DNA from: Prevotella sp.
Lineage (GTDB): Bacteria; Bacteroidota; Bacteroidia; Bacteroidales; Dysgonomonadaceae
DNA length: 22,389 nucleotides
Assembly (NCBI GenBank): GCA_031285625.1
Contig: JAITVV010000008.1
Location: 1-22,389 of the forward strand
Direction of reading: 5' to 3'
The notes beneath the pieces were generated by a model. It did not search any database and was not told the DNA's origin. It saw only the letters and a list, made by a program, of their open reading frames with translations. Below, piece after piece: positions 1,684 through 22,389 of this stretch; position 1 is the stretch's first letter, and each line of letters begins with the position of its first letter. The translations under genes were made by a program, and so were the position numbers.

Positions 1684-1713
1684 AATTTAAAATTTAGATT
1701 TATTTATAACTAA

Positions 1714-4770: not shown

Positions 4771-4880
4771 TAACTCTTTTTTAAGTAGGTATCTTCTGAT
4801 GTAATGCAAATATAGATAATTAGACACAGAACGAAAATGACATTCGTCAATTTCTATTGATTCATTGACTTAAATCAGAG

Positions 4881-6026: not shown

Positions 6027-6081
6027 TTTATATCAGTATATACCGCTTTATAAATATATATATGTATGGATTTATTGGATA

Positions 6082-6160
6082 CAAAAGTAACAGTAATAAT
6101 ATAATCCACGTTGTTCTATTTTTATATTCTTTTGTCCTATATTTGCAAAATATACTTTTG
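6082..6160. promoter_or_regulatory. Divergent promoter region for acyltransferase and AraC
   Basis: TAnnTTTG -7 boxes: minus strand TACTTTTG (6089-6082); plus strand TATATTTG (6138-6145) and TACTTTTG (6153-6160). Confidence 0.45.
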
Positions 6161-6171
6161 ATTATAAAAAA

Positions 6172-7026
6172 ATGTTTAATAATATAAAATATAGTCATAA
6201 TCCAAGGGCAAAAGACAGGTCTTTTCTATTTGACCATGTTCACATCTACTGGAACGAACAGATAACAATGCATCAACAAAATACATGGGAATTATCTTAC
6301 GTTATATCCGGAAAAGGGATGCGGGTTATAGGTGATAATATCGAACCATTCCATGCCGGTGAAATCATTCTCATTCCCCCTAATATTCCACATTATTGGT
6401 CTTTCGAAGAATCGACATGTGACAAGGATGGCAAAATTGAAAATATCACTCTTGTTTTCCAGACAGAGCTTCTAGAGGGTTTGAAAAACGTATTCTCAGA
6501 ATTAGACGATCTTATCACTTCAATACTTAGTTATCAAAACGCTATATCATTGGGAGGCAATACTTTACTAAAAGTAAAAAACATTTTGATACAAATGAAA
6601 GATTGTGGTGAAATTGACAGAATATCTTTACTAATCAAAATGCTGGCATATATTTCTTCGCCAGAAATAGCCAATACAGTGGGCTGTCCTGTAACCGAAG
6701 ACAAAAAGAATAAGAGATTACATAAAATATACCTCTATATAATGGATCATTACCAGTATCCCATTTCTTTAAAAGAAATAGCAAGTCATGTGAATATGGA
6801 AAAAACCGCCTTCTGTATATTTTTCAAAAAAATGACAGGCAAAACTTTTGTTGATTTTATGCTCGATTACAGGATAAATGTCGCCTGTGAATTATTGGCT
6901 AAAACAGACAAAAATATTGCAGAAATATGTCTGGCTTCAGGCTTTCGGGATGTTCCATATTTTAACCGCGTTTTTAAACGGCTTAAAAACACAACACCAG
7001 GTAAATTCAGAGAACAAGTTGCATAA
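6172..7026 (+). CDS. AraC family transcriptional regulator (cupin + HTH)
   Basis: Cupin-like MHQQNTWELSYVISGKG...IPPNIPHYW; C-terminal double HTH IAEICLASGFRDVPYFNRVFKRLKNTTPGKFR. Confidence 0.92.
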   Translation: MFNNIKYSHNPRAKDRSFLFDHVHIYWNEQITMHQQNTWELSYVISGKGMRVIGDNIEPFHAGEIILIPPNIPHYWSFEESTCDKDGKIENITLVFQTELLEGLKNVFSELDDLITSILSYQNAISLGGNTLLKVKNILIQMKDCGEIDRISLLIKMLAYISSPEIANTVGCPVTEDKKNKRLHKIYLYIMDHYQYPISLKEIASHVNMEKTAFCIFFKKMTGKTFVDFMLDYRINVACELLAKTDKNIAEICLASGFRDVPYFNRVFKRLKNTTPGKFREQVA

Positions 7027-7054
7027 TCCCTTTTTGACCTTTATATTTATACCA

Positions 7055-7903
7055 ATGAAAACTATTCCTACCCGAAAAAGCTCGGAACACTTTCCAGGAG
7101 CAGTTGCACGGATGCGGTATTTCTCCGAAGAAAATCCACATCAGACACCTCCTGATCTTCATGCCCACAGAGACGAATACTATATCTTCCTATTAATTGA
7201 AGAAGGTGGCGGAAAGCTGGTGATTGATTTCGAGGAACGGGAGATAACAGGGAAAAGTATTCTTTGTATTCTACCGGGGCAGGTTCATCTTCCAGAAAAT
7301 GATATCCGTGGAAGTGGATGGTTTCTGGCGGTTGACAGCATGGTAGTAAGGGATGAATATAAAAAGATATTTGAGAAGTCCGTTCCTGCCGGAAATAGCA
7401 TAAAACCGGAAAAAGCTATAATGAACGATTTAAGATCCTGTGCTTCTATTATTTATAATCGGCTTAAATCGGACAATGAAAATACCCGACAGTATATTCT
7501 TCAGGATTTACTCTCGTCCTATATTGGGATGATTGCCGAAACCTATCAGGAAAAGTTTCCTACGACAATAAGCAACCGGCTAACTGTTATTACACATGAA
7601 TTCAAGTCTTTATTGGCAGCTAATTATCGTTCCATGAAGCGACCCGCACAGTATGCTGCGGCAATGAATATTTCTCCGGTGTATTTGTATGAGGTGATTA
7701 AGCAAGCTACCGGACAAAGTGTGGGGGATTATATCCGTAATGAAATTGTTATACAGGCTAAACGTTTATTATTCTATACCCACATGAGCATAAAAGAGAT
7801 CGCCTTAGAATTGGGATATGAGGACTGGGCATATTTTACCCGCTTGTTTACCAAGGTTTCCAAACTATCGCCTACACAATTCAGAAACAAATACCTTAAA
7901 TAA
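7055..7903 (+). CDS. AraC family transcriptional regulator
   Basis: HAHRDEYY cupin, ILPGQVH; HTH SIKEIALELGYEDWAYFTRLFTKVSKLSPTQFR. ATG at 7055 avoids the 149-bp overlap implied by the track start at 6878. Confidence 0.9.
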   Translation: MKTIPTRKSSEHFPGAVARMRYFSEENPHQTPPDLHAHRDEYYIFLLIEEGGGKLVIDFEEREITGKSILCILPGQVHLPENDIRGSGWFLAVDSMVVRDEYKKIFEKSVPAGNSIKPEKAIMNDLRSCASIIYNRLKSDNENTRQYILQDLLSSYIGMIAETYQEKFPTTISNRLTVITHEFKSLLAANYRSMKRPAQYAAAMNISPVYLYEVIKQATGQSVGDYIRNEIVIQAKRLLFYTHMSIKEIALELGYEDWAYFTRLFTKVSKLSPTQFRNKYLK

Positions 7904-7991
7904 TCCAAGCCTCACCTCTTTTTCTCCATTTCAGGTATCTGTTCTTTAGGCTTACTTTGCATCAGATATTAATTATTAAAAATTGAAAAGG

Positions 7992-8327
7992 ATGGAAGTA
8001 TCACAAAGAAAATCATTCAGCCGGCGAAAGTTTGTATCTGTCAGTCTCTTTCTCGCATTGGCAATATTGGTGATCACAGGAATATTAATTCAGATATTTG
8101 AAAATTTTGAGGAGGGGTTCTCTATCCATTTCTTCACGGCTGTGCATGTCTTGACTGGGTTGGTTTTTGCCGTTTTATCCATTCTCCATACCACAACAAA
8201 CTGGAAGTCGCTGAAATCGTATCTAAATATAAAAGGAGCTGGTATAAGCAGTGAAGCCATCTGGGCTTTTGGGATTACTACAATTCTTATCAGTATAGGA
8301 GGACTCCTTGCCTATACTTTTTTTTAG
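7992..8327 (+). CDS. Small three-TM membrane protein, DUF4405-like (possible haem-binding)
   Basis: ITGIL...HFFTAVHVLTGLVFAVLSILHTTTNWKSLK: paired TM histidines and HxxxNW are typical of DUF4405. ATG at 7992; TTG at 7983 is the alternative start. Confidence 0.7.
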   Translation: MEVSQRKSFSRRKFVSVSLFLALAILVITGILIQIFENFEEGFSIHFFTAVHVLTGLVFAVLSILHTTTNWKSLKSYLNIKGAGISSEAIWAFGITTILISIGGLLAYTFF

Positions 8328-8366: not shown

Positions 8367-9458
8367 CTAGATAAATACGCTTGACTCACGAGGAATAATT
8401 AATCCGGGCAGATTTGCCATTATCGGTATTGCTTTCCTGTCTTTGAGCCTCCTCATCATTAGGTCGATGCTAACACTTGTTATATCCACACAAGGCTGCT
8501 CAAATGATGTTAGTGAACATTTAAGATGAGTGGAATATTTCATATTGTCGTACCCGCATATTAATATATCCGACGAAATCTTTACTCCTATAGCGTCTAA
8601 AGTCGACATTAAGACAGCTGCTGTCGAATCATTAGCACAAACAATTCCTGTTTTCCCTTTTACAAACTTAATTTTTTTTACAAATTCTATATTTGAAGGA
8701 TCTCCGCAATAGATATTGGAATTGTCGAATATAAGATTATTCTCTAATACAACATTTCTAACTCCAGAAATACGCATATCTACAGACCATGCAGAATCAG
8801 GCCTATAGAAAAAAATGATTTTCTCGCACCCTGCATCTATCATATGCTGTCCCATTATACTGCCTGCATTGAAGTTGTCGATACCAACAACATCATATTC
8901 GCTTCTTTCTGGTGCTTTTATAATGTCCCGGTCAATTAAAACCAAAGGGATATTTGCATCTGTTATTTTTTTACATATCTCAATATTAATTTCGTTAGCA
9001 CGAGGTACCCTTTCCAGTGGAGCAAAAAATATTCCATCCACATTATTTTTTATGTAATTATCACAACAAGTCTCAATCCTGTTTCTTCTGATATCGGCAT
9101 CACTGGCAGTAGCGCCTTCCCATAAGCAGTTAAACTCTCCTTCTTCTGATTTTTTTTGAAATTGATCATTAATAATGGCAAATATTTCCGATTCGCCAGC
9201 GCCAGGTAATAATAGCCCAAAAGTATAAATCTTATTATTTGCTTTATAAGTTACGATAGTACCCAACCCTTTTTTCTTAACCAGGTATCCCTCATGTTGA
9301 AGTTGATTATAAACTTTAGCTATGGTAGGTCGTGATACTGAATATTTATCTGCAAGACTTTGTTCAGTAGGTAACATCGAACCATTCGGAAAGACTTCTT
9401 TTTGAATGTCTTGTTTGATAATATCATAAATGGATTTATAATTGGCTTTTATTTCCAT
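8367..9458 (-). CDS. GntR winged-HTH + LacI-type sugar-binding domain repressor (AraR-like)
   Basis: LPTEQSLADKYSVSRPTIAKVYNQLQHEGYLVKKKGLGTIV (GntR HTH); VDGIFFAP, IPLVLIDR, VGIDNFNAG, CANDSTA, GYDN, LTSFEQP, LIIPRES (LacI effector domain). ATG at 9458 lies downstream of a -7 box at 9490-9483, which overlaps the track's TTG start. Confidence 0.9.
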   Translation of the reverse strand: MEIKANYKSIYDIIKQDIQKEVFPNGSMLPTEQSLADKYSVSRPTIAKVYNQLQHEGYLVKKKGLGTIVTYKANNKIYTFGLLLPGAGESEIFAIINDQFQKKSEEGEFNCLWEGATASDADIRRNRIETCCDNYIKNNVDGIFFAPLERVPRANEINIEICKKITDANIPLVLIDRDIIKAPERSEYDVVGIDNFNAGSIMGQHMIDAGCEKIIFFYRPDSAWSVDMRISGVRNVVLENNLIFDNSNIYCGDPSNIEFVKKIKFVKGKTGIVCANDSTAAVLMSTLDAIGVKISSDILICGYDNMKYSTHLKCSLTSFEQPCVDITSVSIDLMMRRLKDRKAIPIMANLPGLIIPRESSVFI

Positions 9459-9482
9459 TGCTCTATAAACTTTTCGTTTGTA

Positions 9483-9490
9483 CAAATGTA
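9483..9490 (-). promoter_or_regulatory. -7 promoter element of the GntR-LacI repressor gene
   Basis: TACATTTG on the minus strand matches TAnnTTTG, about 25 nt upstream of ATG 9458; no clear -33 TTTG. Confidence 0.55.
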
Positions 9491-9729
9491 ATAATTTTTA
9501 TCGAATTATGCTTATGTCTCTATTATCAAGTTTACATATATGTAATATTTTTATTTATAAACTGCATTAATGTAAATTTCCATTATCTCTTACATAACAA
9601 TTATAAAAACTCTTACAGCAAGGATTACAAACTATAAATAAATCATTATTACTATTACAAAAAGAATGCATATGTAAACAATATGATAATAATAGAAATA
9701 AAATAATATTACATTTATATAAATATATA

Positions 9730-9760
9730 TTTGCATATATAAAAATAAACATTACATTTG
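9730..9760 (+). promoter_or_regulatory. Consensus Bacteroidota promoter of the susC operon
   Basis: TTTG (9730-9733), a 19-nt spacer, then TACATTTG (9753-9760): exact -33/-7 consensus and spacing. Confidence 0.7.
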
Positions 9761-9769
9761 CAATAGATA

Positions 9770-9781
9770 TGTAATATTACA
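9770..9781. promoter_or_regulatory. Palindromic operator candidate TGTAATATTACA just downstream of the predicted susC transcription start
   Basis: Perfect 12-bp palindrome with GT..AC arms typical of GntR-family sites; related palindrome TTACATATATGTAA at 9532-9545. Confidence 0.55.
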
Positions 9782-10037
9782 AAACTCTTATCTAATTGGT
9801 AAGTAAGTGATCATGAGCCTCATTCTTATTTTATTAAGAATAATCTTCTCCAGTATATTCATCTAATTTATTGATCTGTATAATAAATATAAATATGAAA
9901 AACATTAGAAACGGTTAAAACAGTTCATCCAACCTTAATTAAAAATCTCAACCATCAAAAATTGAGAATTGCACAAAACAGATAACCTTAAGTTTAATAA
10001 TCAATTTAAAAAGCCCATGAATCAAAAAAGAATTAAA

Positions 10038-13000
10038 ATGAAGAAGGCTGTATTCTTTCTACTAGCCTTTATTTTCTTTGCGGTCTTTCCAGCACACATT
10101 TTTGGAACAACAAGCTTAGATAATACATTCTCCGTTACACAAAACAATAAGAACATTACTGGTAAGGTCATAGACCAAACGGGAGAATCGCTACCTGGAG
10201 TTTCTGTAATTGAAAAAGGAACTACCAATGGAACCATGACTGATGCAGATGGAAATTTTTTATTAAATGTAAAAAATGAAAGTACCATTATATTCAGTTA
10301 TATAGGATATAAATCTCAAGAAATTGCAGTTTCTGACATCAATGGTAGTTCAATAGTATTAATTGAAGATGCACTCAATCTCGATGAAGTTATCGTTACC
10401 GGATACACTACCCAGAAAAAAGCCGATTTGACAGGTTCAGTATCCGTTGTAAAGGTAGATCAACTAAGAGCAAGTACTTCGGGGAATGCAATGAGAGCAG
10501 CACAGGGAAAAGTAGCAGGTATGTCTGTTTCAGGAAATGGGTCGCCTAACTCGGATGCAAAGATCCGTATACGTGGAGAAGGATCGGTGAAAAGTAGTAA
10601 CGATCCATTGTATATTATAGATGGTACACCGACTACCCGTTCGATGAATGAGTTGGCTACGCTGGATATCGAATCTATGCAAGTGTTGAAGGATGCTTCG
10701 TCAGCATCTATCTATGGTTCACGTGCAGCAAATGGTGTTATCATTATTACCACACGTAGAGGTAAGAAAGGGACAACAGTCGATTTTACAGCATCAAATA
10801 CTTTTGTAAGCAATAAGAAACCCTATGACCTGATGAATACTGAACAACGTGGAATTGCACAATACTGGGCAATTAAAAACGACAATCCGAATGCCGATCC
10901 AAACAAGGTAGGCCTAGGTTGGGTAGATGGTTATGGAGGTATATACCAGTATCAAGATCATAAAGACTCAAATGGAAATTTTGTTTTAGATAATGTTTCG
11001 TGGAGGGAATTTTTAGATCCGGAACCGGGTAGGCAAACCATGAGGACATCTGACACCGACTGGCAAAAAGAAGTACTACGGACAGGTTATATACAACAAT
11101 ACAATGTTACACTTTCTACCGGAAGTGATACTGGAAATGCACTTTTTGCTCTTGACTATTATAACAATAAGGGTACGGTAAAAGGAAGCTTTTTCAATCG
11201 TATCAATGCCCGTATCAACAGTGATTATTCATGGCTGAACGGAAAGGTGAAAGTAGGTGAAAATTTTACTGTATCAAAATGGAGAAGAAACATCAATAAC
11301 TTTACTACCGGCTCTGATGATGAAATATTCAATCGGGCTAAAGGACTCATGTCGGCAGTCCCTGTTCATACCGAAGATGGAGGCTGGGGCGGACCAACAG
11401 GAGGAATGAGTGACAGGCAGAATCCGGTCAGATTGATAGAAGATAATAAGGATAATTATGAAGATAACCTTCGCCTGTTTGGTAATGCATATGTCAGTGT
11501 AGAGGTTCTGAAAGGGCTTACCTTCCGTTCTTCATTTGGTCTTGACCTCACTGGTACCTGGCGCCGTTTAATGGAACTGAAATTTCAATCGGGAAGCGTA
11601 AGTTCGGACAGAAATAAGTTAACCCAAAAATCGGGATATGATCTGAACTGGAATAACAGTAATATCATACAATATGTATTCGACGTCGACAAGCATAATA
11701 TTGATGCAATGTTGGGGCAGGAAACCATCCAACGTAACTATGCGGAGATGGGGGCAAGCCGTATGGATTATGGTTTTGAAACACCCGACTATATGATATT
11801 GGATTCGGGAGAGAGAGAACCCAATAATAGTGGATACAACAGTAATCATACAATGATTTCCTGGTTCGGAAAGATAAACTATAATTATGATAGCCGTTAT
11901 CTGGCATCATTTACGCTACGTCGCGACGCATCTTCCGTATTTGGAGATAATAACCCATGGGCTACATTTCCAGCATTTTCATTGGGATGGGTATTGAGCA
12001 ACGAAAAATTCTTTGGCGGTTTATCCAACGTATTTTCGCAACTGAAGCTTCGATATGGATGGGGAAAAAATGGTAATGCCAGTATAGATGACTACGCAGC
12101 TTCCGAATTATATCAGGCACTTTATGACCAAGGAGTACTAGACGGTTGGAACTGGGGTACGGCATATGATATAGTCGGAAATGAGAAGCAATTAATGTCG
12201 GGTTATCGCAGGAGACAACCCAAAAGCCCTGATCTAAAATGGGAAACAACTGCACAGCATAATTTCGGACTCGATTTTGGAGTACTTAACTCTAAGCTTG
12301 GCGGATCTTTTGACTATTATCGTAAAACCACAAGCGACTTGATTATGCAACCGGGAAGTGTAGCCACTGTTGGTGAAGGTGGAAATCTGTGGCGCAATGC
12401 CGGCGAATTTACCAATAATGGTTTTGAACTCACATTATTTTATAGAGATAATATTGGTAATGTCGGATTCGATGTAAGTGGAGTATTTTCTCATAACAAA
12501 CAGACTGTTAAATATGTACCGGATTATGCTATTAATGATTTTGCAGGAAATAACAGAGACCAAACTATTATAGGAAGACCTCGCTATTCTTTGTTTGGCT
12601 ATGTAGCCGATGGGCTTTTTCAAACTCAGGAAGAAATAGACGCAGCACCTAAACAGGTTGGAGCTACACCGGGTCACATCCGTTTCAAAGACCTGAATGG
12701 CGATAAAATAATAGATGATAAAGACCGGACTTGGATAGGTAATGAAAATCCTGACTTGGAATATGGAATCACATTAGGACTCACATGGAAGAATTTTGAT
12801 TTCAATATTTTCTTCAACGGTGTATTGGGTAAAGACTTAAATGTTCGGGGATGGAAAGGATGGTCTGACCTTTATTCATTGGGTACAACCGGAGAAAATT
12901 ATGGGACACGTATGCTTGGTGCCTGGACACCGACTAACACCAACAGTACAATACCGGCAATGAGCCTCACCGATAAGAATGATGATGGGCGTTTCTCAAC

Positions 13001-13244
13001 TTATTTCGTTGAGAGCGGGGCATATATGAAGATAAGAAATGCAGAGATAGGCTATACTTTACCTCAGAATATGCTAACCCGAATGCTCATTAAGAGAGCT
13101 CGCGTATCCCTACGTGCAGACAACATTGCTACTTTCAAGAAGGGCTGGGGTGACAACCAATATACTGGTTTAGATCCTGAAACACCGGGAAATGGCTATC
13201 CTTTACCTTTCTCTATGACAATGGGAATAAACGTAACTTTTTAA
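10038..13244 (+). CDS. susC: SusC/RagA TonB-dependent transporter, fructan-PUL type
   Basis: Signal peptide MKKAVFFLLAFIFFAVF; N-terminal extension ITGKVID..GESLPGVSVIEKGT; LDEVIVTGY; plug NDPLYIIDG and LKDASSASIYGSRAANGVIIITT; LKWETT; terminal Phe. No STN domain. Start is 10038 or 10017. Confidence 0.95.
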   Translation: MKKAVFFLLAFIFFAVFPAHIFGTTSLDNTFSVTQNNKNITGKVIDQTGESLPGVSVIEKGTTNGTMTDADGNFLLNVKNESTIIFSYIGYKSQEIAVSDINGSSIVLIEDALNLDEVIVTGYTTQKKADLTGSVSVVKVDQLRASTSGNAMRAAQGKVAGMSVSGNGSPNSDAKIRIRGEGSVKSSNDPLYIIDGTPTTRSMNELATLDIESMQVLKDASSASIYGSRAANGVIIITTRRGKKGTTVDFTASNTFVSNKKPYDLMNTEQRGIAQYWAIKNDNPNADPNKVGLGWVDGYGGIYQYQDHKDSNGNFVLDNVSWREFLDPEPGRQTMRTSDTDWQKEVLRTGYIQQYNVTLSTGSDTGNALFALDYYNNKGTVKGSFFNRINARINSDYSWLNGKVKVGENFTVSKWRRNINNFTTGSDDEIFNRAKGLMSAVPVHTEDGGWGGPTGGMSDRQNPVRLIEDNKDNYEDNLRLFGNAYVSVEVLKGLTFRSSFGLDLTGTWRRLMELKFQSGSVSSDRNKLTQKSGYDLNWNNSNIIQYVFDVDKHNIDAMLGQETIQRNYAEMGASRMDYGFETPDYMILDSGEREPNNSGYNSNHTMISWFGKINYNYDSRYLASFTLRRDASSVFGDNNPWATFPAFSLGWVLSNEKFFGGLSNVFSQLKLRYGWGKNGNASIDDYAASELYQALYDQGVLDGWNWGTAYDIVGNEKQLMSGYRRRQPKSPDLKWETTAQHNFGLDFGVLNSKLGGSFDYYRKTTSDLIMQPGSVATVGEGGNLWRNAGEFTNNGFELTLFYRDNIGNVGFDVSGVFSHNKQTVKYVPDYAINDFAGNNRDQTIIGRPRYSLFGYVADGLFQTQEEIDAAPKQVGATPGHIRFKDLNGDKIIDDKDRTWIGNENPDLEYGITLGLTWKNFDFNIFFNGVLGKDLNVRGWKGWSDLYSLGTTGENYGTRMLGAWTPTNTNSTIPAMSLTDKNDDGRFSTYFVESGAYMKIRNAEIGYTLPQNMLTRMLIKRARVSLRADNIATFKKGWGDNQYTGLDPETPGNGYPLPFSMTMGINVTF

Positions 13245-13265
13245 TCAACATTAAACCTAAAACAG

Positions 13266-15014
13266 ATGAAAATAATAAAAATAACTGTTGTATCCCTTAT
13301 AGTAATTCTTCTCGCTTCGTGTAATTCTATGCTTGATGAAGAACCACAAGGATATGTAGATGGCGACGTTTTAGTTACGCCAACAAAAGTTGAACAAATG
13401 GTAATTTCAGCCTACTCATTTCTTGGTCAAAATCATATTAATAAGCAATTTGGCCTACCTTACGAAGAAGGCTCAGTAAGAGCAGGTGAGGCATATAAAG
13501 GTGGTGGAGGACCAGGTGATAATGAGGACAGAGGATTCTGGGAAACCTTTACTTATATGAATCCCGATAATTCAAAAAGCTATAGTTTGGACGAACTGTG
13601 GTGGGTGCACTACGTTGCAGCATGGCGTATAAACGATGCAATGATAAGAGCTAAAAATCTGACGGATGAAGAATACCCGCTACGTTCCAGACGCATTGCT
13701 GAACTACGCTTTTTGAGAGGGCATGTATATATGTATATGAAACAGAACTTCAAATTTTTCCCATATATAGATGAAAATACTCCTTATGATGATTATGATA
13801 AAATAAGTAACAGAGAGTTTACCGACCAGGAACTTTGGGGAAAACTGATAGATGATTTTCGTGCTGCCGAAGCTGTTTTGCCTGAAACTCATCTGGAAAG
13901 TGGAGTGGAAATAGTGGGAAGACCAACTAAATACGCTGCTAAAGCCTATCTGGCTAAAGCCTTGTTATTTGCAGCTTATGAACAGGATGATCAACATAAT
14001 GTGGTAAATATCAATAAAGAAAAATTAATAGAAGTAGAAAAATTATGCACTGAAGTTATAAATGAATCCGGAAAATCATTATTCTCTGATTTTGCCTATA
14101 ACTTCCTGTGGGAAAACGAGAACGGACAAGAATCAATCTGGGCTATACAATACTCCGCCAATACTGACAATTCCCCTATAGGACGCAACAATTCATGGTT
14201 AATATATCCTACAAATTCAGAATACGGTTGTTGTGGTTTCTTAAGACCATCACTCAGCTTGATGAATCGTTATAAAACCATAAAGGGGATTCCTGATTTC
14301 GATAATTTCAACAAAGGAGAAATGCTTGATAATAAAACTGCCTTTGCTAAAACGCCAATGGATCCACGTTTGTTTCATACAGCATGCGTACCCGAAATGC
14401 CTTGGAAATATGATCCGGCTTACATTATGCAGCCACACTGGTCTCGAGCTCCTGAAATATATGGCTATTCTATGAGTCAAAAAATGATAGTTCTTCCATC
14501 ATGCCCTTGTTTTAGAAAAACATATCCGTTTATGGGTAGTGGTTTAAACTGGGACGTGCTCCGGATGGATGAAGTTATCTTGTGGAAAGCTGAAGCATTG
14601 ATACAACTCAATCGCGAAACAGAAGCATTACCTTTAATTAACAGTATACGTACTCGTGCTGCAAATAGTACAAGTTTTCTGAAATTTGCAGACGGAACAC
14701 CTACCGGAAAATTTGATGTAGCAGAATACAAGCCCGGCACAAACTGTCCGGCTTGGAATAAAGACTTTGCAATGAAAGCTTTGCAGTGGGAACGTCAACT
14801 AGAGTTTGCTACAGAAGGAAAATGGTTTTTTGATTTAGTTCGCTGGGGTATTGCTGCAGAATATATGAACAATTATTTTACCATAGAGAAAACCAGAAGA
14901 AGCCATCTTGAAGAAGCGAAATTCACTAAAAACCGTGATGAATACTTCCCTATTCCACAAGTTCAAATCAACTTTGTGAAAGAAGGAATATATAAGCAAA
15001 ACTATGGATGGTAA
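13266..15014 (+). CDS. susD: SusD/RagB lipoprotein, BT1762 (levan SusD)-like
   Basis: Lipobox LLAS-C; AELRFLRG; ENGQESIWAIQYS; GCC and CPC cysteine pairs; DPRLFHT; WERQLEFATEGKWFFDLVRWG; QNYGW terminus. The motifs parallel the recalled BT1762 sequence. Confidence 0.95.
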   Translation: MKIIKITVVSLIVILLASCNSMLDEEPQGYVDGDVLVTPTKVEQMVISAYSFLGQNHINKQFGLPYEEGSVRAGEAYKGGGGPGDNEDRGFWETFTYMNPDNSKSYSLDELWWVHYVAAWRINDAMIRAKNLTDEEYPLRSRRIAELRFLRGHVYMYMKQNFKFFPYIDENTPYDDYDKISNREFTDQELWGKLIDDFRAAEAVLPETHLESGVEIVGRPTKYAAKAYLAKALLFAAYEQDDQHNVVNINKEKLIEVEKLCTEVINESGKSLFSDFAYNFLWENENGQESIWAIQYSANTDNSPIGRNNSWLIYPTNSEYGCCGFLRPSLSLMNRYKTIKGIPDFDNFNKGEMLDNKTAFAKTPMDPRLFHTACVPEMPWKYDPAYIMQPHWSRAPEIYGYSMSQKMIVLPSCPCFRKTYPFMGSGLNWDVLRMDEVILWKAEALIQLNRETEALPLINSIRTRAANSTSFLKFADGTPTGKFDVAEYKPGTNCPAWNKDFAMKALQWERQLEFATEGKWFFDLVRWGIAAEYMNNYFTIEKTRRSHLEEAKFTKNRDEYFPIPQVQINFVKEGIYKQNYGW

Positions 15015-15028
15015 TTAATAACTATTAT

Positions 15029-15079
15029 ATCTATTTGAGTAGAGATAAATGTGAATTATCTATCTTTACTCAAATAGAT
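15029..15079 (+). terminator. 19-bp stem-loop between susD and the first GH32 (attenuator or mRNA-stabilising hairpin)
   Basis: ATCTATTTGAGTAGAGATA (15029-15047) pairs with TATCTTTACTCAAATAGAT (15061-15079), with one G-U pair; no long U tract. Confidence 0.7.
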
Positions 15080-15131
15080 TAATCAATACATTTATACTTT
15101 TTAACCCGTATATTAAAACCTAATAAAAAAA

Positions 15132-16610
15132 ATGAAAAAGATCCTGATATCGATATTAATTACCTTTGTGAGCTCAGTAGTCTGTGGGCAAGTAGCCAAA
15201 GACTACAATCCAACCATTCAAAGAACAACAAATATGCAGTATTTTAAACCTGTAGAATCTCACTTGTTCTCAGGTGATTGCATGCCTTTTTCTCACAACG
15301 GTACACTTTATCTTTATTGGCTTCTGGATGAAGGAAACCATTCGGGACTAGGCGGACTAGGCGGACATCAGTGGGCATTGAGTACGACAACAGACCTTAT
15401 CAACTGGAAGCATTATCCCGTGGCATTAGGAATAGACGAAGATTGGGAGAAATCCATTTGTACAGGTTCAGTTATTGCAGATGGGGACAAATTTTATGCA
15501 TTTTATTCTACTCGTGTTAAAGATGAGAAAGGTATACATGAGCAATTGAGCTATGCGATGAGTACAGATAAAGGGATTTCTTTCAAAAAACAAAAACCTA
15601 ATCCATTTTATTATGCACCCGAAGAATGTGTTAGCCGCGATTTTAGAGACCCGCGTGCATTTAAAGATAAAGATGGAGTATTTCATCTATTCATATCAGG
15701 ATATGAGAAAAATCCAAGCATTGGTGGACAAGGAGGATATCTGGTTCACTTGACATCTAAAGATCTGAAAGACTGGAGAGAAACCACATCTCCTTTAAAA
15801 GGACAAAACGGTACACCCGAATGCCCCGACTATTTTAAATGGAATGATTGGTACTATTTGTTATATAGCATCCATGGTGATACATATTATGTAAAATCAA
15901 AAAATCCATATGGCCCATGGGAGTATCCCCGCACTCAGCCTATGGTGGACAAATGGGCAAACGTAGCTAAAACAGCCGAACTTAATGGTCGTCGTATTGT
16001 TGCGTTCTATACAAATGTAAAAAAGAACAATTTAGATTCTGAAGGACAGATATGGGGTGGGTGTATCCTTTTACGTGAATTGTTTCAACAAAAGGATGGA
16101 ACTTTATCTGTAGGATATTTACCGGAAGTAGCTCCGCCGATGTCGCTTATTTCTACTCCTGATATTATTATTCCTAATATCTCAGATAATAATGGTACAT
16201 ATAAAAATGGTGTCTTGGATATTATTGCTCCTAATGGTATAAGTACAGGCTCAATGAAAGACCTCCCTCGTCAATATCGTATAACAATGACAATAGAACC
16301 CCAAGGCAATTATGACGAATTAGGTTTGTATATGCGAGCAACGGATAAAGACAAAAAAGGATACAAACTTACGTTGAATGCAAATAAACAAACAGTTTCT
16401 TTACATGAATCAAAAATTGAAGGTGTACAAGGCTTAAGAGATAATATAGAGCTGAATATCACAGTGATGGATGATATAATAGATGTATATATCAATAATG
16501 AACGATGTATTATTAATCGCTTGGGAGAGCAAAAAGGTGAAAATATATTTTTCTTTGTGAAGAATGGAGAAGCAATAATCAAGGATATCAAATTGTATAA
16601 GATAGACTAA
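15132..16610 (+). CDS. GH32 glycoside hydrolase (5-blade beta-propeller + beta-sandwich), periplasmic
   Basis: SPI signal ending VCG|Q; nucleophile SGD49CMPF (BT1760-like GDPMP rather than WMNDPNG); TTDLINW; ICTGSV; FRD173P; PE230CPDYF; C-terminal sandwich IIDVYINNE. Confidence 0.88.
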   Translation: MKKILISILITFVSSVVCGQVAKDYNPTIQRTTNMQYFKPVESHLFSGDCMPFSHNGTLYLYWLLDEGNHSGLGGLGGHQWALSTTTDLINWKHYPVALGIDEDWEKSICTGSVIADGDKFYAFYSTRVKDEKGIHEQLSYAMSTDKGISFKKQKPNPFYYAPEECVSRDFRDPRAFKDKDGVFHLFISGYEKNPSIGGQGGYLVHLTSKDLKDWRETTSPLKGQNGTPECPDYFKWNDWYYLLYSIHGDTYYVKSKNPYGPWEYPRTQPMVDKWANVAKTAELNGRRIVAFYTNVKKNNLDSEGQIWGGCILLRELFQQKDGTLSVGYLPEVAPPMSLISTPDIIIPNISDNNGTYKNGVLDIIAPNGISTGSMKDLPRQYRITMTIEPQGNYDELGLYMRATDKDKKGYKLTLNANKQTVSLHESKIEGVQGLRDNIELNITVMDDIIDVYINNERCIINRLGEQKGENIFFFVKNGEAIIKDIKLYKID

Positions 16611-16623
16611 CAAATAATAGATC

Positions 16624-18675
16624 ATGAATAAACCATATAAAATAGTTTTTTTATTTTTAATAATAATTTGTACCTGCAGTTTATCAGCACAAGATGCCGC
16701 AAAAATAGATTTGCTGAGCCACTGGTGGAAGTTTACTCCCACTACTACGGCAACAAGTGCTATAGGGCAAGGAACTAATAAAGTAGAGTTTTATACAAAA
16801 GACCCTATGCAAGGATTTACCCTCAGGTTCAATATAGATCTGAAAAAGGCAGAAGGGCAACAAAATATACTGGATATACCAGGTGTATTATCCGTTTATA
16901 TGCGTCGTACCAGCCCTGATGTACGCGATAGACAAAATTACCCTACACACAAGATGGCCGACGGATCTGTACCTGTGCTTGAAGCAAGCCTTAAACTATT
17001 TCGCACAGAACCTGAAGCGGAAGGCAAGGATATGATAATTGGGTATCCACTTGCCATGTTGAAAAACAGTTATGGAAAACATGAAGTAATTTTGAATTTT
17101 ACCGAAGCTCAATGGACTATGTATGTTGATGGAGAACTTGTAGATAATGATTTCCCGATAGGTTACCCCAAATGGAATACTAAAACAGCATGGTCTGTTA
17201 ATTCGCAATATGTGACAAGTGCTGAAATATTCATGCCAATGATACAACCTGTAAGAGACTTATCCAAAAATACAGAAAGACCCCAAGTGCAATATTGGAC
17301 ACCTGTGGGACATAATTCGTGGGTAGGTGATGTCGCAACTCTATTTCATAATGGTCGCTTTCATCTGTTTTATTTATATGATCGTCGCCACCATTCAAGT
17401 AAATTTGGAGTGGGAGGGCATTATTTTGAACACTTGTCAACAACAGACTTCAAAACATGGACAGAGCATGAAGCGGCTACTCCGATCGAGGAACAATGGG
17501 AGACATTCGGGACAGGAACTCCATTTGTATGGGATGGAAAACTGTGTGTGTCATACGGACTACATACCTCCCGAATTTATCCGGATGTGAAAACAATGTA
17601 TCCGGCCCTGAAAGTACACTATGAGAATTATGGAAAAACAGGACACTTTGATTATAAATCTTTTCCGACTGTACCTTCAGGCGCAACTTATTCTGTTAGT
17701 CAGGATGGGGTTACTAATTTCAAAAAAAGCAAAAAAATAATACATTATAGCGAGAATCCAACTATCTATACCGATGCAAACGGAAAGTTGACAATGATAG
17801 CAAGCTTCCGGTCGAAGGGTATGTGGCAATCCGATTCTTTAGATGGAGGCTGGTATTGTGTCAACAAAGACTTCCCTCCGGGTGGAGATTGTACATTTTA
17901 TTTCCGTTGGGGCAAGTTCGATTATATCATCGGCGGCTTCACAGACCTATGGTCGAAATCTGTTAGTGCAGAGAATAATGAATATAAAAGTGTAGTGGAA
18001 CGAGGTAAAGATTTCTATAACGGATTTAATGTGCCTGCCATAACAGAAATTACTGACGAACGGTTTATTATGTCGGGATGGTTGCCTGTACGCGGATGGG
18101 GAGGTCCTCTTCTAATACATGAGATGATACAATATCCTGATGGTCGCATAGGTACAAAGTGGATGAAGGAATTGATTCCGGATACAGGAGTTTCAAAAAA
18201 TATTATCAAGCAATTGGACAAAACAGTATTTAGTGATGTTTCAGCCCAGTCATTTATGCTTTCATTCGATGTGATTCCTTCAAAAGAAAAAGATGATAAA
18301 TTTTCGGTATCTTTTCTGCCTGCGGAAGGTACAGATAAAGGCTGTGAATTCCAGATGCGGTTAAAAGATTTAGTTGCTCAGTATGGAAATGCATCGTTTG
18401 CCGAATATGCCGTAGCCGAAAAAAGCGTACATGAAGGAGGTCAGCCTCAGGAAGCTCGCAATTATGCAATAGAAAAACTTATAGGAGTGGATAAACCTTT
18501 TACTGTTCGCATGGTTGTTAAGTACTCAGATAAGTTAGGAGGTGTGCTTATCGATTCTGAAATAGCAGGGCAACGCACAATGATAACATATCGCCCCGAT
18601 TTGCTAGTAAAAAAGCTAATGTTCAGGTCAGATGGTGCTCAAGTAAGAAATGTTAGTATAGCACCTTTGTTATAA
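16624..18675 (+). CDS. Atypical GH32-like (clan GH-J) protein with N-terminal LamG/ConA-like domain and altered catalytic motifs
   Basis: SPI signal ending LSA|Q; N-terminal beta-domain with HEVILNF..WTMYVDGELVD; propeller WVGD236V...HLFYLYD...STTDFKTW...FGTGT. SENP replaces FRDP and GGDC replaces PECP. WGGPLLIHEMIQYPDG aligns with WGGCILLRELFQQKDG of the upstream GH32. Confidence 0.75.
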   Translation: MNKPYKIVFLFLIIICTCSLSAQDAAKIDLLSHWWKFTPTTTATSAIGQGTNKVEFYTKDPMQGFTLRFNIDLKKAEGQQNILDIPGVLSVYMRRTSPDVRDRQNYPTHKMADGSVPVLEASLKLFRTEPEAEGKDMIIGYPLAMLKNSYGKHEVILNFTEAQWTMYVDGELVDNDFPIGYPKWNTKTAWSVNSQYVTSAEIFMPMIQPVRDLSKNTERPQVQYWTPVGHNSWVGDVATLFHNGRFHLFYLYDRRHHSSKFGVGGHYFEHLSTTDFKTWTEHEAATPIEEQWETFGTGTPFVWDGKLCVSYGLHTSRIYPDVKTMYPALKVHYENYGKTGHFDYKSFPTVPSGATYSVSQDGVTNFKKSKKIIHYSENPTIYTDANGKLTMIASFRSKGMWQSDSLDGGWYCVNKDFPPGGDCTFYFRWGKFDYIIGGFTDLWSKSVSAENNEYKSVVERGKDFYNGFNVPAITEITDERFIMSGWLPVRGWGGPLLIHEMIQYPDGRIGTKWMKELIPDTGVSKNIIKQLDKTVFSDVSAQSFMLSFDVIPSKEKDDKFSVSFLPAEGTDKGCEFQMRLKDLVAQYGNASFAEYAVAEKSVHEGGQPQEARNYAIEKLIGVDKPFTVRMVVKYSDKLGGVLIDSEIAGQRTMITYRPDLLVKKLMFRSDGAQVRNVSIAPLL

Positions 18676-18709
18676 TAAAATAGAACCCTGTAAAATTAAC
18701 GTTTATAAT

Positions 18710-19876
18710 ATGAAAAAGGAAAATTTTATACCTAAGATAATACCTGTAATGATGGCTTTCTTTACGATGGGTTTTGTAGACCTTGTAGGAATAGCTACTA
18801 ACTATGTAAAAAGCGATTTTGAGCTAACAGATACTATGGCCAACTCGTTTTCAATAATGGTTTTTGTCTGGTTTCTCGTATTCTCGGTTCCCACTAGTAT
18901 ACTGATGAATAAGATAGGTCGCAAAAGAACGGTTCTGCTTAGTTTGATAGTAACATTTATAGGACTTATCATCCCATATATTGAATATAGCAAAGTTTCG
19001 ATGATTATATGTTTTTCCTTTTTAGGGATAGGAAATACTCTTATGCAAGTATCGCTAAATCCGTTATTGACAAACATAGTGAGCGGTGAAAAACTTCCAA
19101 GTTTCCTTACATTAGGGCAGTTCGTAAAGGCTATAGCTTCATTTGCAGCTCCCATCATTGCAGCACAGGCTCTTTTAAGGTATGGCAACTGGACCTTGCT
19201 TTTTCCAATATTCTCAATCGTGGCTCTTATAACTATCGTATATTTAGCCTTCACTGATATAAAGGAGCAAGCTATTGAGGGTAAACCTTCCACATTCAAA
19301 GAATGTATTAGCCTATTAGGCAACAAGGTCATTCTTCTTTTGTTCTTAGGTATACTTGTACATGTTGGTATCGATGTAGGGGCTAATATTACTGCACCAA
19401 AGTTGTTGATGGAAAGACAGGGAATGGTATTGGCAGATGCCGGATATGTGACAAGTCTTTATTTCTTGTTTCGCACAATAGGTTGCTTTTCAGGAACATT
19501 TCTACTGGCATTAGTCCCTGCCAGAAAATTCTTTATTATTAGTGTATATGTAATTTTGTTGGGAGTCGCAGGTTTATACTTTAGTCATACCACCATCATG
19601 ATTTATATCTGTGTAGCTCTCATCGGACTGGGTAATTCTAATATATTCCCTATTATCTTTTCACGGGCATTGATGTATATGCCTACCCGCAACAATGAAA
19701 TATCCGGATTGATGATAATGGGTATTTCAGGAGGAGCTGTCTTCCCCACATTAATGGGATTTGCTTCCGATAAGCTTAACGGACAAGTAGGTGCTGTCAT
19801 TATCCTGACTGTGTGTGTTGCTTATTTGGTTCTGCTGGCAGCCAAGTTGAAAGGTATTGAGAGTAAACAGAATTAA
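18710..19876 (+). CDS. MFS sugar permease (FucP/GGP family), BT1758 fructose-permease-like
   Basis: About 12 TM segments; FFTMGFVDLVGIATNYVK, LMQVSLNPLL, GQFVKAIASF, HVGIDVG, GNSNIF and NEISGLMIMG, closely matching the recalled fructan-PUL permeases. Confidence 0.9.
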   Translation: MKKENFIPKIIPVMMAFFTMGFVDLVGIATNYVKSDFELTDTMANSFSIMVFVWFLVFSVPTSILMNKIGRKRTVLLSLIVTFIGLIIPYIEYSKVSMIICFSFLGIGNTLMQVSLNPLLTNIVSGEKLPSFLTLGQFVKAIASFAAPIIAAQALLRYGNWTLLFPIFSIVALITIVYLAFTDIKEQAIEGKPSTFKECISLLGNKVILLLFLGILVHVGIDVGANITAPKLLMERQGMVLADAGYVTSLYFLFRTIGCFSGTFLLALVPARKFFIISVYVILLGVAGLYFSHTTIMIYICVALIGLGNSNIFPIIFSRALMYMPTRNNEISGLMIMGISGGAVFPTLMGFASDKLNGQVGAVIILTVCVAYLVLLAAKLKGIESKQN

Positions 19877-19899
19877 TTTATAATCATATACTAGAAAAT

Positions 19900-21237
19900 A
19901 TGTATTTTATAGGAATCGACATAGGAACAAGTTCCATTTGTGGTATTATTTATAATTTTGAAAATAAAGAAATAGAATCAATTACCAGAGAAAATAATGC
20001 TTCTATAGAAGCATTGCATATCTGGGAAAAGGCACAGGATGTTTCCATAATACATCAGGTCGTATTAAATATTATCAACGAATTCTCAATTAGATACTCT
20101 GATATAAGAGGTATAGGCTTTAGTGGGCAAATGCATGGAATGTTGTATGTAAACGTAGAAGGCAATGCTGTAAGTCCTCTTTATACATGGCAAGATGAGA
20201 GAGCAAATCAAACATATAAAGAAAATAAGACCTATGCTGAATACCTATCCGATGCTACAGGTTATTCGCTAGCAACAGGCTATGGATTAGTAACACACTT
20301 CTATAATATTGAAAACAATATTGTACCTGAAAGAGCATCAAGGCTTTGTACAATTATGGACTATATTGTAATGAAGTTATGTAAAAATACTCAGCCTTTG
20401 GTCGATTATTCAAATGCCGCAAGCTTAGGATTTTTTGATATCGAAAACCTTAAATTCGATACTGATGCATTAGATAAAATCGGAATAGACACTTCAGTTT
20501 TACCTGAGACAGTAGAATCACCCCAATTGGTAGGTCATTATAAAGAGATACCAGTATATTCGGCGATCGGTGATAATCAAGCGAGTTTTCTCGGCTCTGT
20601 CCAAAACATCGATAATTCTACTCATATTATGGTAGGAACTAGTAGCCAGATATCAGTTTATTCTCCCCACTATGTCCATATTAAATCACTTGACACACGA
20701 CCTTTTCCCGGAGGTGGATTTTTACTTGTAGGAGCTGCATTGTGTGGAGGACAGTCAATTGATATTCTCAAAAAATTATTTGAGAATACCCTCAAGTTGT
20801 TTTCTATAGGAAATAATGATATCGATTATTATGAGAAAATGTCTACTCTGGATTATAAAAAATGTTCGAATAATTTACCTGTTGTAAGGACTCTTTTTGC
20901 TGGTACACGTTCCGAACCGGAAAACAGAGGCAGCATTTTGAATATATCCACTTCAAACCTGACCCCCGAAAACTTGATTCTGGCATTCACTAAAGGAGTG
21001 TGTGACGAATTACTTGAATTTTATAAAATAATTCCTGAACATATAACAAAAGAAAAAGTAATATTAATTGGTTCGGGTAATGGAATAAAAAAGAATGCAC
21101 TTCTAAGGAAAGTTATAGAAGATGGGTTTAAACAAAAACTTATTTTATCTCCCTATCAGGAAGAATCAGCATTTGGAGCTTGTAAATGTACAATTGTAGG
21201 CGGTAATTATGTGAAGGGATATAAGGATTTCGGCTAA
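19900..21237 (+). CDS. FGGY-family carbohydrate kinase, sedoheptulokinase (SHPK)-like
   Basis: GIDIGTSS; GIGFSGQMHG; AVSPLYTWQD; LATGYG; TIMDYIVMKLC; SNAASLGFF; IGDNQAS; GTSSQ; GAALCGG; IGSGNGIKKN. These match recalled SHPK motifs (SGQMHG, AVSHLVTWQD, VATGFG, TIHDYVVAMLC, NAASWGYF, GDLQAS, ASLNGG, MGSGS) better than xylulokinase or glycerol kinase. Confidence 0.82.
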   Translation: MYFIGIDIGTSSICGIIYNFENKEIESITRENNASIEALHIWEKAQDVSIIHQVVLNIINEFSIRYSDIRGIGFSGQMHGMLYVNVEGNAVSPLYTWQDERANQTYKENKTYAEYLSDATGYSLATGYGLVTHFYNIENNIVPERASRLCTIMDYIVMKLCKNTQPLVDYSNAASLGFFDIENLKFDTDALDKIGIDTSVLPETVESPQLVGHYKEIPVYSAIGDNQASFLGSVQNIDNSTHIMVGTSSQISVYSPHYVHIKSLDTRPFPGGGFLLVGAALCGGQSIDILKKLFENTLKLFSIGNNDIDYYEKMSTLDYKKCSNNLPVVRTLFAGTRSEPENRGSILNISTSNLTPENLILAFTKGVCDELLEFYKIIPEHITKEKVILIGSGNGIKKNALLRKVIEDGFKQKLILSPYQEESAFGACKCTIVGGNYVKGYKDFG

Positions 21238-21297
21238 AAGTACAAGAAAAAAACAGGAAGCCTATCCCCTATTTTACATTTTTTACTTTACCAACAT

Positions 21298-21336
21298 ATA
21301 AAAGGTGAAATTCAATGAATTTCACCTTTTATTTTT
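21298..21336 (+). terminator. Intrinsic terminator closing the PUL operon
   Basis: Perfect inverted repeat ATAAAAGGTGAAATTCA-a-TGAATTTCACCTTTTAT (21298-21332), followed by a T run, 60 bp after the kinase stop. Confidence 0.85.
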
Positions 21337-22030
21337 ATTGTAAAAAAATAGAATTATAACCTTTCAAGGTATAGATAAGATTAAAATAGTATCAATATCA
21401 ATTAAATTGGCTGCATTATCTATAAAAATAATATAAATATATGCTAATATGATTAACATCGTATCTAAAGCAATTAATTGAGGCATCTTAAGAAATAATT
21501 CATTAAAGTATTTTTGTATACTCTAATTAGAGTAATATAACTCTATTCATGATGGGCGCTTATTAAAAAAAAATAAATAACACTAAAAAATAGAAAGGGG
21601 GACCTTATGATATAAATACATTAACTAAGTTATAAATAAGCAATAGATGACGCAAAGGCAAGCCAAAACAAGTAGAACTGTACCCTTATCAAGTAAAGCT
21701 CAGCATTTTTAAGAATCAACCCCAAGAATAATACTGAACTCTGAGTTGAGAAATATGGATTGTAAAGAAAAACAACCATAGCCGATACCTCAAAAGTGAT
21801 AGCCCAATAACACCGCTCAATTCTGGATTTTTGTAACTACAAGTGCAAATCTAACCTTTGAGATGTCAACAATCTCACTAATGCCTAATGGATTATAATA
21901 CTAATTCTATTTGTCATGCCCAATGATAATAATCTTCTCCCGATTTAGGAGTAATATTTCTCTCCCTGATTAGGATAATTCCTTTCAGCTAATTCATTTT
22001 ATTGACACTAATCATTTTTCAACCTCAAAT

Positions 22031-22162
22031 ATGGCTAACGTTTCTATCGAAGGATCTACAACATCTTTGACGATTGTGTCTCCCGAAAACCGGTCTCCTG
22101 TGGCATTTAGTGGAAATATGGAAATCGGGCTTCAATCGATGGTCGTTATTATAGAAAAATAA
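22031..22162 (+). pseudogene. 43-codon ORF or gene remnant of unknown function
   Basis: MANVSIEGSTTSLTIVSPENRSPVAFSGNMEIGLQSMVVIIEK*; the frame stays open upstream to a TAG at 21971; followed by a 6-bp hairpin TTCGGT/ACCGAA (22167-22184). Confidence 0.25.
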
Positions 22163-22303
22163 TCATTTCGGTGAACGAACCGAATAACTATATTTTTATA
22201 ATTTATCTAATAGTACAAACAATGAGCGTGTTATACTAATTACAAGATTATGGTAATAAGTAAAAAGTAACAGCTGGAAAATCCAGTGAGCGTTGCCCCC
22301 TCG

Positions 22304-22389
22304 TGCCAAATCTAAATTGACCCCTGAAAAAACTTTATGATTACCCCTAAATTATCCTGGTCGACGGGGTCATTTTTATTTTAGATTTA
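22304..22389. repeat. Imperfect inverted repeat resembling insertion-sequence (IS21-like) ends
   Basis: AAATCTAAATTGACCCC (22308-22324) versus GGGGTCA..TTTAGATTT (22366-22388); a second ACCCCT copy lies 23 bp after the first; truncated by the window end. Confidence 0.35.

Follow-up and report, generated by a model that had tools for sequence, protein, structure and literature searches.

A fructan-type utilisation locus of Bacteroidota with an unnamed GH32-fold protein and a sedoheptulokinase-like FGGY kinase

Introduction

Fructans are major prebiotics and also occur as polymers in soil and biofilms. How Bacteroidota use them is currently modelled on the polysaccharide utilisation locus (PUL) of Bacteroides thetaiotaomicron. 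This levan PUL (BT1754-BT1765) is equipped with a hybrid two-component sensor and closes with an inner-membrane major facilitator superfamily (MFS) transporter and a cytoplasmic PfkB kinase. Here we describe a locus on contig JAITVV010000008.1, the whole of which (22,389 bases; contig C39 of the 4.84-Mb, 94%-complete Bacteroidota genome G000) formed our window. This locus also closes with a predicted inner-membrane MFS transporter and a predicted cytoplasmic sugar kinase, but the kinase is a sedoheptulokinase (SHK)-like member of the FGGY family, and the regulator is of the GntR/LacI type. A preliminary description of this DNA had proposed that it serves the utilisation of heptulose (sedoheptulose) glycans. 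Our leading, though tentative, reading is that it represents a conserved, uncharacterised branch of Bacteroidota fructan-type PULs that handles a fructose-configured hexose, most simply by converting fructose to fructose 6-phosphate.

Other described systems resemble parts of the locus or of its relatives. The eukaryotic sedoheptulokinase (SHPK/CARKL, EC 2.7.1.14) belongs to the same FGGY family, the likeness to the window kinase coming through language-model features and transferred names. The salvage role of SHPK has no counterpart to the bacterial context of GH32, glycyl-radical enzyme (GRE) and manA-like isomerase genes reported below. Ring-opening of 1,5-anhydro-hexitol 6-phosphates by GREs is described in a review (PMC13450708), which presents it as 'anhydroglycolysis' in E. 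coli, where the glycyl-radical isomerases YbiW/PflD act on 1,5-anhydroglucitol/-mannitol 6-phosphate.

Results

The list of open reading frames (ORFs) places a regulator gene on the minus strand, followed by six plus-strand genes in the order susC-susD-GH32-unk683-MFS-FGGY kinase (Table 1). Gaps of only 13-117 nt separate the six genes, the one between the MFS and kinase genes being 23 nt. ORFs and family scans agree with the single operon, gene order and divergent GntR-LacI-type regulator of the preliminary description, and, as it had also stated, no further catabolic gene is present in the operon. SusC scored 838.8 bits on TIGR04056, and its residues 60-1091 matched the SusC of the levan SusCD/utilisome entries 5t3r, 6z8i and 8a9y with 804 bits. 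SusD scored 116.7 bits on SusD_RagB and, aligned over its full length with the SusD of the levan utilisome entries 5lx8, 5t3r, 6z8i and 8aa2, reached 391 bits, with the runner-up PDB match at only 54 bits; the Foldseek listing gives 8a9y and 8aa2 as levan utilisation machinery. The pair is thus homologous to the levan importer over its full length, as the resemblance to the levan PUL claimed earlier would have it, which places the import apparatus in the fructan class.

The two enzymes encoded next are, among solved structures, closest to the BT1760 levanase of the B. thetaiotaomicron PUL. The first, GH32a, scored 89 bits on Glyco_hydro_32N (Pfam) and has a complete catalytic set (D49 / R172-D173-P174 / E230-C231-P232). 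Its nearest solved relative, the BT1760 endo-levanase (68 bits), aligned over the C-terminal as well as the catalytic domain, FRDP and ECPD being in register. The second, unk683, had no sequence match in Pfam (E<=0.001), NCBIfam or the PDB, and its 907 homologues are all unnamed or 'hypothetical'. The AlphaFold model of unk683 (pLDDT 84.2, pTM 0.84) contains the five-bladed beta-propeller and C-terminal beta-sandwich of the GH32 fold, preceded by an extra N-terminal beta-sandwich (~residues 25-210). All top Foldseek matches listed for this model were GH32 structures, with E values down to 6.6e-17 for BT1760 inside the levan utilisome, and a levan fructotransferase was matched as well. Together with an hhalign probability of 97.8 against the GH32a profile, this bears out the label 'GH32like' that the protein had been given before.

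In the hhalign alignment, the nucleophile D49 of GH32a is equivalent to D236 of unk683, R172-D173-P174 to E377-N378-P379, and the acid/base segment E230-C231-P232 to D422-C423-T424. GH32a therefore has the nucleophile Asp, RDP and EC motifs expected of a levan-PUL GH32; unk683 retains the nucleophile Asp only, departing from the GH32 triad (Asp / RDP-Asp / EC-Glu) in two of three motifs. Residues D236, N378, P379, D422 and C423 were invariant across 25 aligned members. Compared with GH32 fructotransferases and levanases (Arthrobacter levan fructotransferase 4ffh and BT1760), unk683 shares the predicted propeller and beta-sandwich fold (TM 0.62-0.65, target-normalised) and the nucleophile Asp, but is only 12-14% identical, carries the added N-terminal domain, and has Asn for the RDP Asp (ENP) and Asp for the acid/base Glu (DC). 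The window thus differs from the levan PUL of B. thetaiotaomicron by an additional GH32-fold enzyme with a D/ENP/DC triad, and it has neither a canonical GH32 nor a BT1761-like surface binding protein. Across Bacteroidota, Verrucomicrobiota and Planctomycetota, unk683 sequences share ~55% identity. The gene is patchy, with no match at E<=1e-50 in the 400 other genomes of a phylum sample. A metagenome contig of 3611 nt (L098) encodes the stretch of unk683 from residue 132 to 683, together with the beginning of the MFS, at 100% amino acid identity to the window, and therefore derives from the same or a very close strain sampled independently.

The kinase scored 104 bits on FGGY_N. No NCBIfam model reached its cut-off (best XylB, 127 bits against a cut-off of 380), and none of the solved relatives, which phosphorylate glycerol, gluconate or xylulose, exceeded 52 bits, with no SHK structure among the PDB matches. 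The nearest Atlas clusters in a language-model feature search are named sedoheptulokinase (0.99; a chordate cluster, 0.97), and homologues of 56-57% identity from Parabacteroides and Sphingobacterium carry the same name at NCBI or JGI. The assignment of an SHK-like FGGY kinase instead of a PfkB, made in the preliminary description, therefore holds, and the PfkB fructokinase of a levan-type PUL has no counterpart in the locus. The ATP-binding and catalytic motifs GIDxGTSS, GDNQA, GTSSQ and GSGNG are intact and invariant across 10 homologues. Among the matches listed in a search of the sedoheptulokinase literature, we found no published assay of a bacterial enzyme of this group, nor any paper joining sedoheptulokinase with GH32 or with a glycyl radical; passage searches of two fructan papers (PMC11774028, PMC10515425) yielded no mention of a kinase. 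The name 'sedoheptulokinase' on this group is a transferred annotation only.

To place the kinase in context, 80 genome loci around kinase homologues were compared, 15 of them Bacteroidota by record title and 65 others. A GH32-family neighbour was present in 11 of the 15 Bacteroidota loci, and the co-occurrence of kinase and GH32 that the preliminary description had named as a check is thus found. In several of these loci the regulator, SusC/D and MFS recur as well, with 59-73% identity. Canonical GH32 genes, which have the C domain next to a GH32N match at E=4e-97, occur in L002, L003, L006, L007 and L009, GH32a-type genes in L002, L006, L007, L010 and L014, and unk683 in L004, L006 and L011-L014. 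Kinase and unk683 form a convergent pair amid unrelated genes in two rumen Bacteroidales (L011, L013), and unk683 is near the kinase in L012 too. Among the 65 other loci, a GH32-type neighbour was seen in 4 (L055, L061, L062, L064), and the kinase directly adjoins GH32 in the Bacillota loci L055, L062 and L064, an adjacency that recalls the scrB-scrK pair. Adjacency of the kinase to the MFS or unk683 gene recurs in the window and in L003, L004, L006, L010, L011-L014, L106, L138, L144, L164 and L166.

The most common neighbours of the kinase were a ~790-aa PFL-like GRE and a radical-SAM activase, directly upstream in 26/80 loci, and a 350-aa cupin downstream of the kinase in 17/80. This cupin is a distant class-I mannose-6-phosphate isomerase (89 bits on TIGR00218, cut-off 116), referred to here as manA-like. 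The GRE scored 252-272 bits on TIGR01774 (PFL2/glycerol-dehydratase class), under its cut-off, and its best solved relative was PFL2 2f3o at 206 bits, with PflD at 134 and YbiW at 91; 25/25 full-length sequences have GCQEP at the Cys loop and, at the glycine site, the unusual motif RIHGTF. There is no specific NCBIfam model for this subfamily, the Atlas gives it generic names only, and no paper was found tying a glycyl radical enzyme to an FGGY kinase. The activase-GRE-kinase(-manA-like cupin) module is conserved not only in Bacillota but also in some Bacteroidota (L005, L006, L022, L028, L033, L037, L040, L044-L049, L052, L067-L073 and L078-L080, with the kinase at ~10001 in most), and the activase and GRE genes lie inside the PUL in L006, L106 and L166. 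The relatives thus pair sugar phosphorylation with a GRE of the PFL2/glycerol-dehydratase class and its activase, as E. coli 'anhydroglycolysis' does; their GRE is only distantly related to PflD and YbiW, however, and E. coli phosphorylates by the phosphotransferase system where these relatives would use an FGGY kinase. The GRE of the relatives is absent from the window and from its genome.

In a FastTree phylogeny of 90 kinases, the Bacteroidota kinases formed a clade of 23 rows with 99% support, 15 of them GH32-linked, 4 GRE-linked and 4 neither. The GRE-linked rows are L005, L006, L106 and L166, 3/4 being PULs with GH32-family genes, and L106, with the order MFS-AE-GRE-kinase-unk683-GH32 (AE being the activase), holds the nearest relative of the window kinase (61% identity). 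A Bacillota clade comprised 57 rows, 24 of them GRE-linked. In loci outside Bacteroidota that lack a GRE, no Pfam family was enriched among the 114 proteins next to the kinase, <=4/114 sharing any one. In L005 (7154-12138), from a Candidatus Symbiothrix metagenome-assembled genome (MAG), the AE-GRE-kinase genes are followed by two MFS genes, between which lie genes for a TIM-barrel protein resembling xylose isomerase and for an enzyme of the long-chain mannitol dehydrogenase family; these neighbours hint at a hexitol or ketohexose input.

A second sample consisted of 80 metagenome loci around unk683. It contained SusC in 20/80, SusD in 16/80, a tblastn match to canonical GH32 in 24/80, a GH32a orthologue (at least 47% identity) in 14/80, the regulator in 11/80, the MFS in 12/80 and the SHK-like kinase (52-61% identity) in 7/80. 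A different FGGY kinase, 29-31% identical to that of the window, occupied the same slot in 4/80 (L108 1603-3027, L110 8498-9922, L116 8126-9463, L118 5059-6534); in L108 and L110, where the PUL is otherwise homologous, GH32a and unk683 flank it. Thirty loci had 4 kb or more of sequence on each side of unk683, and 6 of these held an FGGY kinase of either type. Elsewhere, unk683 adjoins a ROK glucokinase-like kinase, a Sugar_tr transporter and a manA-like cupin, plus a GH127-like gene (L114), or a manA-like cupin and a DUF2961 gene (L112). Genomes resembling Dysgonomonas, Parabacteroides, Tannerella and Parapedobacter carry this locus type, as do contigs from the human gut. Two of the latter (L154 and L162, 10001-22070) read unk683-susC-susD-canonical GH32-GH32a-MFS with a ClpB-like gene before; a kinase, if present, would lie outside the flank examined.

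The genome that holds the window also holds a classical fructan-type locus on contig C6 (L097 9772-18762), composed of a GH32, a hybrid two-component system (HTCS), a Sugar_tr MFS, a PfkB and a DUF2961 gene. The GH32 is canonical (248 bits, DUF4980 + GH32N/C), the HTCS bears a periplasmic-binding sensor, and the DUF2961 protein (721 aa) belongs to a family known as GH172. A point of difference from the B. thetaiotaomicron system is thus this separate GH32-HTCS-PfkB locus in the same genome; the window lacks the fructose-sensing HTCS of a levan-type PUL, and the HTCS with a periplasmic-binding sensor lies on C6. A PfkB 48-54% identical to that of C6 co-exists with the SHK-like kinase in 3/5 other genomes tested. 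Of the remainder, one MAG had no C6-type PfkB, and the isolate Parapedobacter defluvii (L002), where a canonical GH32 adjoins the kinase, gave only a 33%-identical match. Missing from the window genome are orthologues of the kinase-linked GRE (best match 27%) and of the cupin (29%), as well as a second SHK-like kinase.

The MFS protein scored 88 bits on MFS_1 and 58.7 bits, under the cut-off, on the gluP subfamily; homologues at 59-73% identity occur in related PULs. The regulator combines a GntR helix-turn-helix (58.9 bits) with a Peripla_BP_3 domain (67.5 bits), confirming the earlier statement that it is not an HTCS, and its homologues (54-68% identity) adjoin the same PUL in other loci. 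The ATG codons at 10017 and 9458 are the likely true starts of susC and the regulator gene. Two TAnnTTTG boxes, read by eye in the control region, are candidate promoter elements. A scan for sigma-70-type promoters returned 53 sites against 53.8 expected, so that the 'consensus promoter' described before is not borne out, whereas the strong terminator is, with its stem and T-run. The palindrome TGTAATATTACA was considered as a conserved operator and rejected, since 0/178 loci contain it and 21/100 shuffles give a match.

Table 1. Features of the window
Feature	Position	Strand	Basis or remark
GntR/LacI-type regulator	8367..9458 (ORF 8367-9485 from TTG; probable ATG 9458)	-	GntR helix-turn-helix + sugar-sensor domain
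Control region, divergent, AT-rich	9486..10016	.	sequence read
Two TAnnTTTG boxes	9726-9733 and 9753-9760		control region; read by eye
Palindrome TGTAATATTACA	9770-9781		control region
SusC-type TonB-dependent transporter	10017..13244 (ORF 9969-13244 from TTG; first ATG 10017)	+	TIGR04056
SusD-type lipoprotein, predicted surface glycan-binding	13266..15014	+	SusD_RagB
GH32a, divergent GH32 enzyme, probably secreted	15132..16610	+	Glyco_hydro_32N
unk683, 683-aa GH32-fold protein, probably secreted	16624..18675	+	predicted structure, profile alignment
MFS, predicted inner-membrane sugar importer, gluP/TsgA/FucP-like	18710..19876	+	MFS_1
FGGY-family sugar kinase, 'sedoheptulokinase-like' group	19900..21237	+	FGGY_N
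Intrinsic terminator hairpin, 16-bp stem, 3-nt loop, T-run	21298..21332	+	sequence
Two neighbouring GFO/IDH/MocA oxidoreductases	214-2787	-	489 and 357 aa
DUF6377/TPR protein (577 aa), Acyl_transf_3 membrane acyltransferase, small DUF4405 protein, two AraC-type regulators	3094-8327		AraC-type ORFs 6172-7026 and 6878-7903, overlapping by ~150 nt
Contig end, AT-rich (GC 0.29), ~1 kb	21333-22389		no ORF >50 aa, Rfam match or tRNA

Outside the operon, the GFO/IDH/MocA pair was considered as part of the pathway and set aside: it lies on the opposite strand with five unrelated genes between, and homologues occur in 5/80 unk683 loci. Rfam and tRNA scans of the window found nothing.

Discussion

According to our leading reading, SusC and SusD would take up a beta-fructan-like oligosaccharide, which GH32a and unk683, both probably secreted, would degrade. 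The MFS transporter would then import the monosaccharide set free, and the SHK-like FGGY kinase would phosphorylate its terminal primary hydroxyl. The GntR/LacI-type regulator may repress the operon until the sugar is present. This sugar would most likely be a fructose-configured hexose, not sedoheptulose, the simplest case being fructose converted to fructose 6-phosphate. Canonical GH32 genes in related PULs, the levan-type SusCD, the other kinases found in the same slot and the GRE/manA-like partners argue for hexose-level, fructose-configured chemistry. As its own genome has neither the kinase-linked GRE nor the phosphomannose isomerase-like gene, the product of the window kinase should enter core metabolism directly.

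Several points weigh against plain fructose as the substrate. We know of no FGGY fructokinase, and the window PUL itself has no canonical GH32. The invariant changes of RDP to ENP and of EC to DC in unk683 hint at different chemistry. In 26/80 loci the kinase is linked to a GRE and activase, an arrangement that would serve no purpose if the kinase yielded ordinary fructose 6-phosphate. Given the classical C6 locus, the window PUL is a second, separately regulated GH32 system in this genome, and the co-existence of PfkB in 3/5 genomes means that the SHK-like kinase is not simply a replacement fructokinase.

A non-standard route accommodates these points and is possible, although we consider it rather unlikely. 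Here unk683, possibly with GH32a, would free a fructose-derived sugar other than fructose (an anhydro-, deoxy- or rare keto-hexose) for which the kinase would be specific. In the relatives, the linked GRE would open or dehydrate the phosphate ester by analogy with YbiW/PflD; the window genome would need an unlinked enzyme. The adjacency of activase, GRE and kinase, often with the manA-like cupin, fits this route, and so does the nesting of GRE-linked kinases (4/23 rows) in the GH32-linked Bacteroidota clade, with the activase and GRE genes inside the PUL in three loci. The Cys loop and glycine site common to all 25 full-length GREs, the invariantly altered triad of unk683, the PfkB co-existing in most genomes tested, and the ring-opening of 1,5-anhydro-hexitol 6-phosphates by GREs described in PMC13450708 point the same way. 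The window genome, however, lacks such a GRE and a phosphomannose isomerase-like orthologue, and the operon has no reductase or isomerase. The GRE is distant from PflD and YbiW, such chemistry is not known for GH32 enzymes, and only 6/30 of the well-flanked unk683 loci carry an FGGY kinase. PfkB co-existence, the altered triad and the GRE, activase and manA-like partners suggest that at least some members of the family handle a non-standard fructose-derived sugar. An unlikely extension is that the kinase, unk683 and the relatives' distinct GRE and manA-like isomerase make up an undescribed anaerobic pathway, the fructan-side counterpart of 'anhydroglycolysis'. In such a pathway, a GH32-type enzyme would make a modified fructose-derived sugar out of a fructan-like glycan, with phosphorylation and then radical chemistry to follow.

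That the locus is a heptulose (sedoheptulose) glycan system, with beta-heptulofuranosides cleaved by the GH32-like enzymes and sedoheptulose 7-phosphate as the kinase product, is improbable. The names on the nearest Atlas clusters and on the NCBI and JGI homologues speak for it, as do the conserved co-occurrence of kinase and GH32-like genes, the altered sugar-binding RDP motif of unk683, and the fact that no additional catabolic gene would be required. The name is transferred, however, with no bacterial enzyme in the literature among the matches listed; canonical fructosidases occur in the same PUL family, the SusCD are of the levan type, and related loci have an FGGY kinase of another type or a ROK kinase in the slot. 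We found no indication of the heptulose substrate put forward in the preliminary description, although its wider alternative, another non-fructose ketoside, may still hold. Its sedoheptulose 7-phosphate product fares no better, as the GRE, activase and manA-like partners fit hexose chemistry and would make no sense downstream of that compound. To our knowledge, no heptulofuranoside polymer has been described, which also counts against the proposal. Finally, a general role of the kinase in salvage or housekeeping, with its gene riding at the operon end and no tie to the PUL substrate, is highly improbable, for although the Bacillota and other loci without a GRE show no enriched family and many unk683 loci have no kinase, the gene follows the MFS gene by 23 nt and shares its terminator, and its adjacency to MFS or unk683 is repeated across many loci.

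In summary, this type of locus has another regulator and another kinase family than the B. thetaiotaomicron model. It contains, in unk683, a widespread and highly conserved GH32-fold enzyme that databases leave unnamed in all its homologues. This family and the link between kinase and GRE are the parts most worth bench work. Functional assignment of both unk683 and this kinase would put right the 'sedoheptulokinase' annotation that has spread widely, and such work could expose a new GRE-linked sugar route in gut anaerobes.

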